Positions 8,580 to 14,262 of a stretch of 32,000 bases of DNA are shown piece after piece. Under the pieces are notes generated by a model that saw only the letters and a program-made list of their open reading frames with translations, had not been told where the DNA came from and did not search any database. This DNA is from Promethearchaeia archaeon (GTDB taxonomy: Archaea > Asgardarchaeota > Lokiarchaeia > Sigyniarchaeales > SOKP01): contig JAWOFX010000054.1 of NCBI GenBank assembly GCA_046497275.1, forward strand, positions 108,095 to 140,094, in the 5' to 3' direction. The position numbers and the translations under genes were made by a program. Position 1 is the first letter of the stretch. Each line of letters begins with the position of its first letter.

Positions 8580-10664
8580 TCATTTCCATTTTGGATCCAT
8601 AAAATTTAGAAGTTCTTCTATAGAATTAGTTGGGGTTTTACATGTCTTATCTACGCATACATATCCCGTTGGCTTTTCGTTAATTTTATCAAAATATCTA
8701 ATATAATCTGAAATTTCATCTATTTTCGGGTTAGACTCATCCGCAGGTCGAAAAATAAATGTTTTATTTGGTAAAAAGTATCTATTTATTTCTTTAAGTA
8801 TTTTTTCCGTCTCTTTCATTTCATTATTGCCTACAATAACTAAAGTATATGAAGGACCTATAGCAAAATCAAGGGCAGTCATTAAATGAGTAAATGCCAC
8901 TGGATTTTTGCGTATTAATTCGGCAAAGACCATTCCTATATATTCAGCTTTTTTCTCTAGTTCATGATCACCCGTGAAAAAACTTAGCCGTAATAAATTT
9001 AACATTGAAACAGAATTTCCAGAAGGGATAGCTCCATCATAAAATTCTTTCTGTCGAACTAATAGTTCCTCATTCTGATCTGAGGTGAAATAAAAAGCAC
9101 CGATATTATCATCCCAGAAATTATCTATTTGTTTTTGATTAAAATTGAGTGCGAGTTTTATGTATTTAGGATTAAAAGTGGTTTCATATAATTCGATTAA
9201 TCCCCATATGAAAAACGCATAATCATCAAGATATCCTTCAATCCCCGCCTCCCCTTCCCTATAACGATGAAATAATCTTTCTTCAGAAGGTTGTAAATTT
9301 TCTAATATGAATTCAGTTGCCTTAATAGCAGCGTCAGAATATTTTTTTTCATTAAGAATTCGAGCACCTTTTGCCAGTGCTGCAATCATTAATCCATTCC
9401 AATCCGTTAAAATTTTATCATCCTTACCAGGATGTACTCGTGTTTGTCTATATTCAAATAATCTTTGTCGAATTTGTTCAATTCTCATTTTAAGCTCATC
9501 ATAAGTCATATCAAAGTTAACTGCTAATTGGGAAAATGATTTGTTTCTATGTAAAATATTTTTCCCCGTATTTTTTCTAGTAGCTTCTTCAAGATAATTT
9601 CCACTTTTTTCTACATTATACACACTTACAATTATTTTTGCGTCTTTTTCATTCAAAATCTCATGAAGATCATTGTGCTCCCATACATAGAATTTACCCT
9701 CAACCCCATCACTATCCGCATCTTCAGCTGAATAAAATCCACCTTCAGATGATGTCATATCCCGAAGAACATATGTGAAAATCTCGCGAGCGGTCTCGGC
9801 ATAAAATTCTTTATTTGTTGCTTGATATGCTTCTAAATATGCGATGGCTAAAAGAGCTTGATCATACAACATCTTTTCAAAATGAGGGACTAACCACTTT
9901 TGATCTGTTGAGTATCTATGAAAACCGAATCCGATTTGGTCAAATATTCCTCCCATTCGCATATTATTTAAAGTCTTTTCAACCATTTCAAGAGCATGGT
10001 TATCATTTGTTCTTTTCCAGAATCTTAAAAGAAATGAAAGTTGATGTGGAGAAGGAAATTTAGGAGCTTGTCCAAATCCCGCATATTTATCATCAAACCG
10101 CATCGATAATTGATTGAATGCTTTACTTAAGGTTTTTTTATCTAATTTATTTCCGGGTTGCTCATCAGCAACTTCTTGAACAGCATTAATTATCTGCTGA
10201 GTACCCCTTAATAATTCATCTCGCTCATTTTCCCATAGATCTTTAATTTTTTTTATGAGATCAATTAAACCTGTACGACCGAATCGACTTTCCTTAGGAA
10301 AATATGTGCCTGCGAGGAATGGCTTTTTATCTGGTGTCATAAAAATAGTTAACGGCCATCCCCCAGACCCTGTTAAAACTTGACAAACTGTCATATAAAC
10401 TTTATCAATATCAGGTCGCTCTTCTCTATCAACTTTTATTGAGATAAAGGTTTCGTTCATTAATTTAGCTACTTGTGGATCCTCAAAAGATTCATGGGCC
10501 ATGACATGGCACCAGTGACAAGTCGAGTAGCCAATTGAGAGGAATATTGGTTTATCCAGCTCTCTAGCTTTATTAAAAGCCTCCTCTCCCCATGGATACC
10601 AATCAACGGGATTATTTGCATGTTGAAGTAGGTAAGGACTTTTCTGATCTGCTAATTTATTCAT
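8580..10664 (-). CDS. yyaL: YyaL/SPATA20-like protein (DUF255 thioredoxin-like domain plus alpha/alpha barrel)
   Basis: Hallmark [88 protein letters not shown]. Confidence 0.93.
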
Positions 10665-10684
10665 AATTATATTATATCTCGATC

Positions 10685-11257
10685 TTATTTTTGATTCAAT
10701 TTATTTCCATAATCATTAATATAACAAAATTCACTTAATTCTTTTCTTGGAGGTCTTTGTTTCTCTCCTAATTTCATATTATCTGATAAATCAGGATTTA
10801 TGGTATCCGAGTGTTTTCCAATATTTACCAATGTAATTAATCGCATATTTTCAGGGATATTCAAAATTCTTTTTGCTTCTTTTTCATCATAGCCTGCAAT
10901 AGGATGTGCCACCAATCCTAATTCAGTAGCTCTTAAAATTATAAAAGCGGTCGCTAATCCCGTGTCAAATAAGTAATATTTTCGCTCATTTATGAGACAA
11001 TCATCTTCTGGTTTACTAAAAACGGCTATTATCATTGAAGCCTTTTCAATCCATTTATTTGTTTTAGTTAAGGTTTTAAAAAGACGTTCAAGCTGTTGTT
11101 TTTCATATACAAAAATGAAATTCCACGGTTGTTTATTAAAGCAAGAGGGCGCGATTTGCGCAACATGAGCTAAATCATTTATTAAATCCTTATTGATCTC
11201 TACAGGATCGAGTGAACGGTAGGCTCTTCTTTTTTCGATAGCTTTTTGAACATTCAT
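10685..11257 (-). CDS. Nitroreductase family protein (FMN-dependent)
   Basis: RRAYRS FMN-binding start, [17 protein letters not shown]...ATELGL; 20 nt upstream of yyaL on the same strand. Confidence 0.9.
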
Positions 11258-11503: not shown

Positions 11504-12682
11504 TTGTTAAATAATCACTCATTATTGAATAAAATTGTTTGTACTGAATGTGGTTCAGAATATAATATTACCGATTTGCATAATTTATGCACATCTTGTG
11601 GAAAAGTTCTATTCCCTCAATATGATTTAGAAAAGGCAAAAGAATTTCTTTCTAAAGATCAGATCCAGCAAAAAAAAGTCTATAACATCTGGCGTTTGAA
11701 TGAAATAATGCCTGTTAACAACTCTAAATATAGGATATCTCTTGGAGAAGGTTGGACTCCAATCATAAAAATAAATAATTATGGAAAAAGTATCGGCTTA
11801 AACAATTTATATATTAAAGACGAGGGTCAGAATCCAACTGGAACCTTTAAGAGTCGTGGTCTCTGTGCAGCAGTTTCCAAAGGATTAGAATTAGGTGTAA
11901 AAGATTTTGTAATGCCCAGTGCAGGAAATGCAGGAGCAGCTTTATCCGCATATACGGCTCATGCTGGAGTTAACGCCCATATTTTTGCTCCCAAAGATGC
12001 TCCGGAATTTATTCTAAAAGAAATAGAAGTTATGGGAGGAGATCTTGTATTAGTTGATGGGTTAATAGACTATGCTGGAGAGAAAGCGAAGATTGCTCAA
12101 CAAGAAAATGGTTGGTTTTCTGTTTCCACTCTAAAAGAGCCTTATCGGGTAGAGGGAAAAAAGACGATGGGATTAGAATTAGCGGAACAATTCGATTGGA
12201 CTTTACCTGATGTCATAATTTATCCCACTGGAGGCGGTACTGGAATCGTTGGAATGTGGAAGGTATTTTCTGAATTAGAAAAACTTGGATTAATAGGGAG
12301 TGAAAGACCTCGTATGGTTTCTGTACAACCCACAGGATGTCAACCTATCGTACGTGCATTCAAAGAGGGTAAAAAATATGCGACCAAATGGGAGGATGCA
12401 CATTCATTTGCTGGAGGGATAAGAGTACCAAGTGCAATAGGTGATTATTTAATATTGGAAGCCCTTAAGCAGTCCAATGGTACTGCTATTGCTGTACCTG
12501 ATTCAGATATCAAAATAGCTATGTATGATTTAGCGAGAATTGAAGGTATTATGCTTTGTCCTGAAGCAGCAGCAACCGTGGATGCAGCAAAAAAATTAGT
12601 AGAAAGAGGATTTTTAGACAGTGATGAGAATGTTGTATTATTTGGAACAGGTTCTGGTTTAATCACTCCGAATGATTGGTAA
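11504..12682 (+). CDS. thrC: Threonine synthase-like PLP enzyme (fold type II)
   Basis: Zn-ribbon CTEC/CTSC, SLGEGWTP, PLP lysine in NPTGTFKSRG, SAGNAG, PTGGGTG, PEAAA; TTG start with SD GAGGA. Confidence 0.82.
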   Translation: MLNNHSLLNKIVCTECGSEYNITDLHNLCTSCGKVLFPQYDLEKAKEFLSKDQIQQKKVYNIWRLNEIMPVNNSKYRISLGEGWTPIIKINNYGKSIGLNNLYIKDEGQNPTGTFKSRGLCAAVSKGLELGVKDFVMPSAGNAGAALSAYTAHAGVNAHIFAPKDAPEFILKEIEVMGGDLVLVDGLIDYAGEKAKIAQQENGWFSVSTLKEPYRVEGKKTMGLELAEQFDWTLPDVIIYPTGGGTGIVGMWKVFSELEKLGLIGSERPRMVSVQPTGCQPIVRAFKEGKKYATKWEDAHSFAGGIRVPSAIGDYLILEALKQSNGTAIAVPDSDIKIAMYDLARIEGIMLCPEAAATVDAAKKLVERGFLDSDENVVLFGTGSGLITPNDW

Positions 12683-12755: not shown

Positions 12756-14243
12756 CTAGGGATCATTACGAAGAGGATGTCGCGCATTCTCTTTATTTTC
12801 TAATGCTTCATTTACGTCGGGATTTCCTTCTAAAGCTTTCCTAATAGCATTTCTAGTCGCTTTATAATTATTGATGAAAACTCTTTTCCTTCTACTCGCA
12901 GTGGGATGGACGAATACATTTATAATTATAACCAATTCCTCTGTAAGTTCAGAGGGGATGATTCCATCTTCCACACATTGCATAATTGCCTTTCCTATCG
13001 CTGCTTGTGCTGGACCATAGACTAAACTTGAATGGCGAAGTGATGAAACTTTTACCGTTGGAATCATAATGGATGCAGGTTTAACTTGCATGTTAGGCTC
13101 TAATATCACTTGAAGACCTTCTACATCTTTTTTTGAGTGGGATAAAGCTAGAGCATAAGCCTCTCCTACTGGACCATCTTTTCTTCCTATAATTAGATCA
13201 ACATGGGCTAATTCAGCTCCTTCTCCAACAAGTGATTCTCCTACTTTTAAATTGAAATTTTCAATCTTTTTTGGAGTAATTCCTATTGAATAGAATTTAC
13301 TTGAAATTTCTTTTTCTTTGAATTCAAATTTCAGTTCTTTTTTCTCGATATAACCTATCTTTTCCAATTCTACCCGCAGTTCATCCCTTATTTCATAAGA
13401 TAATGTGTCACCTAATATTACTGGTTTTCTTGTAACTCCTACAGGAATTCCCATCATATTTAAACACTCTTTAGCACCTAGGGCTCCACTGTTAATCAAT
13501 AGTCTGGCTAATTTTTGGATCTTTTTTTGATGAGTTTGAGCTTCCTTTAACTCATTTTTTTTAACATGATTATATATCTTAAGCCATTCTTTTGGAAGAA
13601 CATTCGCCGACCCTAAAATCGCGCCAGCCGCACCTCCTGCTAATGCTCCTAGAAAATTTTCATCCCATCCTATCAACACAGATATTTTATCACTTAGCTT
13701 CTCTAATAAAGCAGAAAAATATTTATAATCTCCACTAGAATCTTTGATTCCTACGAAATTTTCAATTTCTGCAAGATCTTCTACAACTGTCCAAGGTAAT
13801 TCTATCCCAGTACAAACTGGAATGTTATAAATAACAATAGGAATATCTGTATTATCAGATATTTCATAATAATGATCATACAACCCTTTTGCTTTAGGCT
13901 TTAAATAGAAAGGTGTGACAATTAAAACCGCATCTGCTCCTATATCTGTTGCCTTATTCGTAGCTTCTATTGTGAGTTTAGTACCAGAATCCCCTGTTCC
14001 GGCAATCACCGGTACTCTCCCATTTGCCTCATCAACAACAATTTCAATAACTTTCAATCTTTCTTCCCGTGTCATATTGACAAATTCTCCTGTGGTACCA
14101 GATGGTACAAGACCTGTGACACCTTGATCGATGAGATAGTTTACTAAATTTCTTAAATTTTCTTCATTAATCGATTCATCCTTATTAAAAGGAGTTACCA
14201 TTGCTGGCATAACTCCCGTTGGTCTAAAATCAAATTTTCCCAT
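12756..14243 (-). CDS. fae: Fusion: DapA/NAL-family class I aldolase (aa 1-~298) plus formaldehyde-activating enzyme Fae (aa ~331-495)
   Basis: DapA part: GTTGE (T50,T51), YNIP (Y139), Schiff-base KDSSG (K167), GWD. Fae part: GESLVGEGAELAHVDLIIG, KPAS, YGPAQAAIGKA, VFVH, NYKAT, terminal HP. One continuous 495-codon frame. Confidence 0.9.
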   Translation of the reverse strand: MGKFDFRPTGVMPAMVTPFNKDESINEENLRNLVNYLIDQGVTGLVPSGTTGEFVNMTREERLKVIEIVVDEANGRVPVIAGTGDSGTKLTIEATNKATDIGADAVLIVTPFYLKPKAKGLYDHYYEISDNTDIPIVIYNIPVCTGIELPWTVVEDLAEIENFVGIKDSSGDYKYFSALLEKLSDKISVLIGWDENFLGALAGGAAGAILGSANVLPKEWLKIYNHVKKNELKEAQTHQKKIQKLARLLINSGALGAKECLNMMGIPVGVTRKPVILGDTLSYEIRDELRVELEKIGYIEKKELKFEFKEKEISSKFYSIGITPKKIENFNLKVGESLVGEGAELAHVDLIIGRKDGPVGEAYALALSHSKKDVEGLQVILEPNMQVKPASIMIPTVKVSSLRHSSLVYGPAQAAIGKAIMQCVEDGIIPSELTEELVIIINVFVHPTASRRKRVFINNYKATRNAIRKALEGNPDVNEALENKENARHPLRNDP

Positions 14244-14262
14244 TTTTTTACTTCTCTCCTTT

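Follow-up and report, generated by a model that had tools for sequence, protein, structure and literature searches.

An archaeal DapA-family aldolase fused to a formaldehyde-activating enzyme: a candidate link between keto-acid and H4MPT one-carbon metabolism

What is the role of a protein that joins, in a single chain, a class I aldolase of the DHDPS family and a formaldehyde-activating enzyme (Fae)? The question is raised by gene P0001 (positions 12756..14243, minus strand, 495 aa), which lies within the window, that is, the whole stretch of 32,000 nucleotides of Promethearchaeia DNA that was analysed. Profile searches with Pfam and NCBIfam bore out the sequence-only reading, which had described a DapA-family aldolase and a complete Fae in one 495-aa frame. 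Residues 8-294 (13362..14222, minus strand) match the Pfam DHDPS model (E = 2.9e-77). Residues 334-491 (12771..13244, minus strand) match Pfam Fae (PF08714) over profile positions 1-158 of 159 (E = 1.2e-53), and an alignment with the solved M. extorquens Fae, 1Y5Y (E = 3e-31), spans this part from one end to the other; with the NCBIfam model one_C_fae (TIGR03126), P0001 scores 184.6 bits against a cut-off of 118. Alignment places a linker of about 39 residues (295-333; 13245..13361, minus strand) between the domains, and its length differs among relatives.

The signature residues that had been read from the letters are all present. The aldolase domain carries T50 and T51 (in GTTGE), Y139, a YNIPVCTG motif with C144 (codon 13812-13814, minus strand), the Schiff-base lysine K167 in KDSSG (codon 13743-13745, minus strand) and a GWDE motif, and the Fae domain carries AHVDL with H347 (codon 13203-13205, minus strand), GPAQ, VFVHP, NYKAT and a C-terminal HP. 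Across 121 sequences of the close family of P0001, residues T50, T51, Y139, C144, K167, D168, E195 and H347 are invariant.

An architecture search, as the sequence-only reading had proposed, found the fusion to be widespread. More than 120 clusters (90% identity) share the 495/496-aa architecture, and about 13 further clusters (50% identity) also combine aldolase and Fae; because the same architecture recurs in independent assemblies, an assembly join is ruled out. The holders comprise many Asgard families, Bathyarchaeia and one lineage labelled Korarchaeota. Full-text literature searches for the fusion and related terms returned no description of it, in agreement with the earlier impression of novelty. 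Public records almost always label these proteins "4-hydroxy-tetrahydrodipicolinate synthase".

Under that label, P0001 would be a genuine DapA carrying an added domain. The annotation arises because P0001 exceeds the cut-off of the NCBIfam dapA model (TIGR00674; 232.6 versus 206.15 bits), and the closest solved relatives by sequence are indeed DHDPS enzymes, at about 40% identity to the aldolase domain. However, R138 of E. coli DapA binds the carboxylate of aspartate semialdehyde, and the aligned position in P0001 is C144. Among the roughly 13 distant clusters, this position holds C, V, L or A wherever the motif aligns and Arg was seen in none, the two most degenerate sequences not aligning there. 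Phylogenetic analysis of the aldolase domains placed all fusion rows (16/16) in a single clade with Arg-less KDSSG proteins (SH-aLRT 99), outside the DapA clade and far from the genome's own DapA. The latter, encoded by a canonical dapA (YNVPSRTG), adjoins dapB on a separate contig (C28) of the same genome. Loss of the Arg, a separate clade and a dapA-dapB pair elsewhere together outweigh the TIGR00674 score. Judged by its sequence, the fusion is not the lysine-pathway DapA, as had been proposed from the Cys-for-Arg exchange, and the public annotation is extremely improbable.

What, then, does the aldolase act on? Fold, Schiff-base Lys, Tyr and Thr-Thr are common to the fusion and to DapA/DHDPS, NanA, KDG aldolases, YagE/YjhH and HOGA, whereas the missing DapA Arg, the separate clade and the additional Fae domain set the fusion apart from these lyases. 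The substrate could be a larger 2-keto-3-deoxy acid of the KDG or sialic-acid type, with the Fae domain acting separately or merely protecting, and with no coupled C1 transfer. Consistent with this, P0001 has a GxDE-type motif (GWDE, or GHDE in most relatives), which in the sialic-acid lyase subfamily presumably binds hydroxyl groups of larger substrates and whose presence fits a one-carbon aldehyde poorly. The closest relatives that stand alone are Arg-less KDSSG aldolases, themselves uncharacterised, and NCBIfam scores for models of this kind are sizeable though all below their cut-offs: 191 versus 281 (PRK04147) and 170 versus 382 (TIGR00683) for the NanA-type equivalogs, 197 versus 397 for the HpaI-NOT-DapA model, 118 versus 374 for KdgD and 113 versus 390 for archaeal KDG aldolase. 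Yet two or three archaeal phyla have retained the fusion, which speaks for coupled chemistry, and the sole known fusion partner of Fae releases formaldehyde. Furthermore, the surroundings of the fusion show no conserved sugar-acid genes at the loci examined, and the neighbours of the partner family described below (PanB and a homoserine-dehydrogenase-like protein) suggest C4 hydroxy acids rather than sugars. We regard a larger substrate without C1 coupling as unlikely.

Tandem copies bear on whether the aldolase is catalytic at all. Many lineages carry two consecutive fusion genes, the upstream paralog having a degenerate Fae domain that lacks the AHxDL histidine and the HP tail. In one lineage (L012), both copies have lost the aldolase Thr-Thr, Tyr and Lys, and the downstream copy keeps an intact Fae (AHVDL, VFVHP, NNYKA and the HP tail); aldolase chemistry is thus dispensable there. 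Such a pair is what would be expected if Fae activity alone mattered and the barrel served mainly as an oligomerisation scaffold or a regulatory module for a second cellular Fae. Against this stand the invariance of T50, T51, Y139, K167, D168 and E195 in the 121 close sequences and the retention of the aldolase catalytic residues by both copies of seven other tandem pairs, which together indicate selection on catalysis. The genome, moreover, already has a putative Fae-Hps. A purely structural or regulatory barrel therefore appears very unlikely.

Directly upstream of the fusion lies an orphan gene, P0122 (14263..15543, minus strand, 426 aa), and the two form part of a conserved two- or three-gene module that the earlier reading had not seen. 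The ATG start codon of P0001 follows the stop codon of P0122 by 19 nt, and this gap holds a ribosome-binding site (GGAGAG, 14254..14259, minus strand); site and spacing together imply a single transcript. Among the best 80 loci in species genomes, a full-length fusion lies within 7 kb of a P0122 homologue in 51. In Asgard genomes the fusion is directly downstream of the P0122 gene, and in Bathyarchaeia it adjoins a P0122 homologue with divergent transcription. Within the fusion genome's own family, the two genes are also absent together, from 14 genomes. The association is not universal: the two genes are unlinked in families f8 and f17, and some families have either gene without the other. 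In five other Asgard families, a 315-aa orphan stands upstream of the fusion instead; its comparison with the P0122 barrel (hhalign probability 39%, E = 3e-4) suggests a possible distant kinship. The linkage of fusion and P0122 and the tandem pairs with a degenerate upstream Fae are the points new in this analysis.

P0122 matches no Pfam or NCBIfam family, and sequence profiles found no match to it in the PDB. Its AlphaFold model, which comprises an N-terminal helical domain and a TIM barrel, reached a pLDDT of 87.8 and a pTM of 0.88 with 20 homologs (pLDDT 39 from the single sequence). Searches with this model returned class II FBP aldolases in the PDB by Foldseek (E about 1e-4 but TM 0.33), a flat list of matches at Z about 12 by VIA-align and U32-like barrels in the ESM Atlas (TM 0.56), so that the predicted fold appears to resemble generic TIM barrels only. 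The idea that P0122 is a very diverged paralog of the aldolase-Fae fusion was rejected (hhalign probability 0.5%). A predicted complex of fusion and P0122 scored 0.00, a value informative in neither direction.

Of 68 metagenomic loci with room to judge, 49 encode PanB directly upstream of the P0122-family gene and on the same strand, and an amino-acid dehydrogenase::CBS gene is often the next one. In Thermoplasmatota, the P0122-family gene opens an operon that also encodes a homoserine-dehydrogenase-like protein, an ALDH or AOR and an aminotransferase. All three contexts, that with the fusion included, involve 4-hydroxy-2-oxo or 2-amino acids. On the other side of the fusion, a threonine synthase gene (11504-12682) was considered as a functional neighbour and rejected as coincidental: it is not conserved in L005 or L006, and no member of the threonine-synthase family is among the conserved neighbours at the other fusion loci examined.

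PanB, ketopantoate hydroxymethyltransferase, is a metal-dependent 2-oxoacid hydroxymethyltransferase that uses methylene-tetrahydrofolate. It resembles the fusion in occupying the same genomic place, immediately beside a P0122-family gene, and in the reaction type that we propose, in which a formaldehyde-level C1 unit would pass between a reduced pterin and C3 of a 2-oxoacid. The two differ in having no sequence relationship (PF02548 is absent from P0001 and from the whole genome) and in construction, PanB being a single domain with methylene-tetrahydrofolate whereas the fusion would combine a lysine Schiff base, a Fae domain and H4MPT.

This resemblance raises the prospect of a strict substitute for PanB, in which the fusion would hydroxymethylate alpha-ketoisovalerate, drawing the C1 unit from methylene-H4MPT, and so supply ketopantoate for the making of coenzyme A, and P0122 would act next in pantoate synthesis. 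Besides the succession of PanB and P0122-family genes at the 49 metagenomic loci, the genome itself (98.9% complete) speaks for such a role, having a phosphopantothenate synthetase without a PanB match; its genus-mate G183 and genera g4 and g10 likewise carry the module without PanB. However, PanB is present in 192 of 251 Asgard genomes, and most fusion-bearing ones are among them, so that the two show no phyletic complementarity. Four g3 genomes, three of them 98-100% complete and the fourth 89%, encode phosphopantothenate synthetase and yet lack PanB, the fusion and the P0122 gene alike. In addition, the characterised members of the DHDPS family act on pyruvate or on small 3-substituted analogues; a 3,3-disubstituted donor would be atypical. 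Given the co-occurrence and the g3 genomes, strict displacement of PanB is unsupported, and we retain it as a minor and quite unlikely rival.

Coupling to H4MPT presupposes the cofactor. The genome encodes an RFAP synthase match above cut-off, two Ftr genes, an Mch fragment at a contig end and a Mer-like match below cut-off. A separate 432-aa frame on contig C43 is read as a putative Fae-Hps from its N-terminal Fae match. Across the 251 Asgard genomes, Fae-domain genes and Ftr have a nearly identical family distribution. By this gene content, the organism has the H4MPT system. In family f8, several near-complete genomes carry the fusion without an Ftr match.

Fae-Hps offers a second comparison. 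Both proteins are single chains from archaea that use H4MPT, each uniting a complete Fae with a TIM-barrel aldolase, and they presumably share a logic in which the aldolase liberates or consumes formaldehyde next to the enzyme that attaches it to H4MPT. In contrast to Fae-Hps, where Fae is N-terminal, the fusion carries it at the C terminus, and in many lineages the fusion is doubled in tandem, the Fae of one copy being degenerate. The partner also differs: the Hps barrel is OMP-decarboxylase-like, whereas that of the fusion is a class I Schiff-base DHDPS barrel, and the substrate would therefore be a 2-oxoacid rather than a sugar phosphate. The joining of Fae to a formaldehyde-releasing aldolase in Fae-Hps is an established precedent (Goenrich et al. 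2005, cited in PMC8407382).

The reaction that we propose has a counterpart in engineered metabolism. In its account of the synthetic homoserine cycle, PMC8879981 presents the condensation of pyruvate and formaldehyde to 4-hydroxy-2-oxobutanoate as a promiscuous activity of E. coli RhmA and other aldolases, and the product as non-native in E. coli. The fusion would catalyse the same reaction, differing from RhmA as a dedicated natural enzyme coupled to H4MPT.

Collectively, these observations favour a bifunctional 2-oxoacid/formaldehyde aldolase coupled to H4MPT through Fae and working with P0122, a reading to which we assign a probability of about 0.5, with its substrates, coupling and direction of flux inferred. 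In this model, the Schiff-base lysine of the N-terminal domain would bind a 2-oxoacid, most likely pyruvate, and the aldolase, with formaldehyde as its aldehyde, would form or cleave the bond between C3 and C4 of a 4-hydroxy-2-oxoacid, for which 4-hydroxy-2-oxobutanoate is the likeliest candidate. The Fae domain at the C terminus would condense formaldehyde with tetrahydromethanopterin or release it from methylene-H4MPT. The net result would be an H4MPT-dependent hydroxymethyl transfer to or from a 2-oxoacid, a counterpart of PanB with methylene-tetrahydrofolate and a parallel to Fae-Hps. P0122 would probably make or consume the 4-hydroxy-2-oxoacid alongside the fusion.

An aldolase of this kind tied to H4MPT was the core proposal of the sequence-only reading. 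It gains independent support from gene context, because the P0122-family gene elsewhere follows the gene for a 2-oxoacid hydroxymethyltransferase, PanB; what that reading had missed is the module and the residue loss at L012. Several points count against the model: besides the GxDE likeness, these are the loss of aldolase residues at L012, the f8 genomes lacking Ftr and the unlinked genes in f8 and f17. The assembly of the fused chain is also hard to picture, since the solved enzymes of the DHDPS family form tetramers or dimers, and Fae forms a homopentamer whose active sites lie between subunits.

Both active site and genomic surroundings point towards a hitherto undescribed connection of keto-acid with one-carbon metabolism. 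Asgard archaea, to which eukaryotes are more closely related than to any other known group, and the sediment-abundant Bathyarchaeia commonly carry the fusion, and metabolic reconstructions probably miscount it, because it is publicly labelled as a lysine-biosynthesis enzyme. If the proposed function is correct, the fusion would be a second natural example, after Fae-Hps, of an aldolase with a direct connection to the H4MPT one-carbon pool, and the natural counterpart of a reaction for which engineers of synthetic methanol or formate assimilation now turn to promiscuous enzymes. More tentatively, and rather less probably, Asgard archaea and Bathyarchaeia may possess a dedicated natural route that connects central C3/C4 metabolism, via 4-hydroxy-2-oxobutanoate, with the Wood-Ljungdahl pathway at its H4MPT branch, with the P0122 family processing this compound further; to our knowledge, both compound and pathway have elsewhere appeared solely in designs of synthetic biology, namely the homoserine cycle. 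The fusion also offers a handle on the very large, highly conserved orphan enzyme family of P0122, whose chemistry can be narrowed, from its three alternative partners, to that of 4-hydroxy-2-oxo or 2-amino acids.

Pfam domain analysis of the 495-aa open reading frame on the minus strand at 12756-14243 (P0001) revealed a DHDPS-family domain at residues 8-294 (E 2.9e-77) and a formaldehyde-activating enzyme (Fae) domain at residues 334-491 (E 1.2e-53; 158 of 159 profile positions covered). The sequence-only reading had placed both domains in one frame; these matches bear it out, and every residue it had listed was found at the number it gave. No gaps interrupt the alignment of its Fae region with the solved Methylobacterium enzyme (1Y5Y). 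Among NCBIfam models, the protein scores 184.6 bits against one_C_fae (cut-off 118) and 232.6 bits against dapA (cut-off 206), and because the latter score exceeds its cut-off, public copies are named 4-hydroxy-tetrahydrodipicolinate synthase. The fusion is real and not an assembly join: over 120 clusters (90% identity), drawn from independent assemblies, share the 495/496-aa architecture.

The aldolase domain had also been proposed not to be a DHDPS, and three lines of evidence agree, contradicting a true DapA function. First, Cys144 replaces the arginine with which DapA binds aspartate semialdehyde; it is invariant across 121 sequences of the close family, and wherever the motif can be aligned in distant members, the residue is C, V, L or A. 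Second, the genome encodes another DHDPS-family protein (299 aa) with the motif YNVPSRTG, its gene immediately adjoining dapB. Third, in a 142-row phylogenetic tree, all 16 fusion aldolase domains fall within a single clade (SH-aLRT 99), joined by a few short rows that include fusion fragments; its neighbors are uncharacterized Arg-less KDSSG proteins, and the DapA of this genome is placed far away, among the DapA sequences. The fusion also scored below the NCBIfam cut-offs for NanA, HpaI-like, KdgD and archaeal KDG-aldolase models.

When 1.84 billion cluster representatives were searched, approximately 13 more fusion clusters were recovered, with identities of 36-50%; more distant members are publicly named as, among others, Thorarchaeota, Korarchaeota/Thermoproteota and one Anaerolineae MAG. 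Ten Asgard families (f1, f2, f8, f10, f13, f14, f17, f19, f22 and f28) in a 251-genome sample have frames of ~490-530 aa with a match starting in the linker, and the fusion is also present in Bathyarchaeia loci. A 757-aa protein, P0140, carries an aldolase domain 47% identical to that of the fusion (YNIPQCAG and KDSSG) with a transglutaminase-like domain in place of Fae; this could be a distinct fusion or an error of gene calling.

Two fusion subtypes were distinguished: one retains the complete Fae signature (AHxDL, VFVHP, NNYKA and the C-terminal HPxxxxP), and the other has lost the Fae histidine and tail. Our genome carries a single copy of the canonical subtype; both subtypes stand in tandem, the degenerate copy upstream, at three loci (L010, L011 and L012) and in Asgard families f8, f10 and f22. 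The aldolase catalytic residues are retained in both copies of seven of the eight tandem pairs. The pair at L012:8544-11449 (genome G253, ~1.0 Mb) lacks Thr-Thr, Tyr and the Schiff-base Lys in both copies, which read LADSSG and ILDATG at the lysine motif, while the downstream copy retains an intact Fae signature. This pair is consistent with a role for the aldolase barrel as a scaffold only, but elsewhere the catalytic residues are invariant, which argues against that role.

Directly upstream of the fusion, on the same strand, lies an orphan gene for a 426-aa TIM-barrel protein (P0122; 14263-15543, minus strand), its stop separated from the fusion start by a 19-nt gap containing a GGAGAG site. 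P0122 matched no family in Pfam or NCBIfam. A database search nevertheless returned at least 8,000 relatives at E 1e-5, and identity across Asgard families is 60-80%. Its AlphaFold model, built with 20 homologs (pLDDT 87.8), comprises a helical N-terminal domain and a TIM barrel, and fold searches retrieved generic barrels only. In 51 of the best 80 loci from species genomes, the barrel gene is no more than 7 kb from a full-length aldolase-Fae gene. The fusion is immediately downstream of the barrel gene on the same strand in Asgard loci and adjoins it in divergent orientation in Bathyarchaeia loci. Persistence of the linkage in two phyla despite the altered gene order provides good evidence that the two proteins share a function.

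Within the family of our genome, 14 genomes lack both genes. The two are unlinked in f8 and f17, the barrel gene occurs alone in f6 and f23, and the fusion occurs alone in f13 and f14. Upstream of the aldolase-Fae gene or genes in f10, f13, f14, f19 and f22 is instead a ~315-aa orphan without a Pfam family (L028:11313-12260, minus strand; aligned with copies in L027, L030, L035, L037 and L038), separated from the aldolase-Fae gene by one gene in L027. With an hhalign probability of 39%, it may be distantly related to the P0122 barrel.

On the other side of the fusion, a convergent threonine synthase gene (11504-12682, plus strand; NF006050, E 5.7e-166) is not adjacent to the fusion in the related loci L005 and L006. 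Downstream of the fusion, a nitroreductase-family gene and a gene for a 694-aa thioredoxin-like DUF255 protein (Thioredox_DsbH; 8580-11257, minus strand) form a pair that recurs in both loci, probably reflecting shared ancestry, not function.

The tetrahydromethanopterin (H4MPT) carrier is present in our genome, which encodes an RFAP synthase scoring over its cut-off, two Ftr genes, an Mch fragment at the end of a contig and, separately, a 432-aa protein read as Fae-Hps; a Mer-like match fell below its cut-off. In the 251-genome Asgard set, families that have Fae-domain genes also have Ftr, and those lacking one lack the other, with few exceptions. These include several near-complete f8 genomes with the fusion but no match to Ftr (PF01913); in G027, G037 and G046, which carry an aldolase-Fae pair, either the H4MPT pathway is incomplete or Ftr was missed.

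The barrel family occurs in three alternative conserved contexts, aldolase-Fae being one. A motif search yielded 120 metagenomic loci (L137-L256), 114 of which encode a homolog at 52-69% identity. Upstream sequence of at least 700 nt is available for 68, and in 49 of these the gene for ketopantoate hydroxymethyltransferase (PanB) lies directly upstream on the same strand; an amino-acid dehydrogenase of the Glu/Leu/Phe/Val type fused to CBS domains often follows, with aminotransferases, a Cys/Met-family PLP enzyme and 2-oxoacid:ferredoxin oxidoreductase nearby. The third context is found in Thermoplasmatota, where 14 of 151 genomes carry the family and a ~340-350-aa gene adjoins the barrel gene in 9 of 13 fetched loci (L124-L136). 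Both such genes scanned are homoserine-dehydrogenase-like, followed, among the genes scanned, by an aldehyde dehydrogenase or aldehyde:ferredoxin oxidoreductase and a class I/II aminotransferase.

Strict replacement of PanB by the fusion in pantoate synthesis would fit our own genome (98.9% complete), which encodes the archaeal phosphopantothenate synthetase (G000:C34:4667-5194) and has no PF02548 (PanB) match. However, most fusion-bearing Asgard genomes encode PanB as well, and genus g3 has this downstream CoA enzyme without PanB, the fusion or the barrel gene, which weakens that explanation. A larger sugar-acid substrate is suggested by a GxDE-type motif in the aldolase but finds no support in the gene contexts.

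Full-text literature searches found no description of a DHDPS-family aldolase-Fae fusion. Fae-Hps links Fae with an aldolase that releases formaldehyde (Goenrich et al. 2005, cited in PMC8407382), the same logic as proposed here; the present protein is a Fae-aldolase fusion with a partner of a different aldolase class, within an undescribed module. The aldolase lysine would form a Schiff base with pyruvate, and the enamine would attack formaldehyde, or the reverse cleavage would occur, with the Fae domain supplying or removing formaldehyde as methylene-H4MPT. This aldol reaction is otherwise known solely as a promiscuous activity, exploited in the synthetic homoserine cycle. Its product is described in a 2022 review as a non-native metabolite in E. 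coli (PMC8879981).

Collectively, the barrel gene accompanies enzymes for attaching or removing a hydroxymethyl branch at a 2-oxoacid (PanB or the fusion), as well as enzymes for 2-oxo/2-amino acid interconversion and for oxidation of a 4-hydroxyl via the aldehyde to the acid. This company points to a 4-hydroxy-2-oxoacid as the simplest common intermediate, which, with a pyruvate-type class I aldolase, would be 4-hydroxy-2-oxobutanoate. In net terms, a hydroxymethyl group would be transferred in an H4MPT-dependent manner, which would make the fusion the PanB counterpart of H4MPT users.
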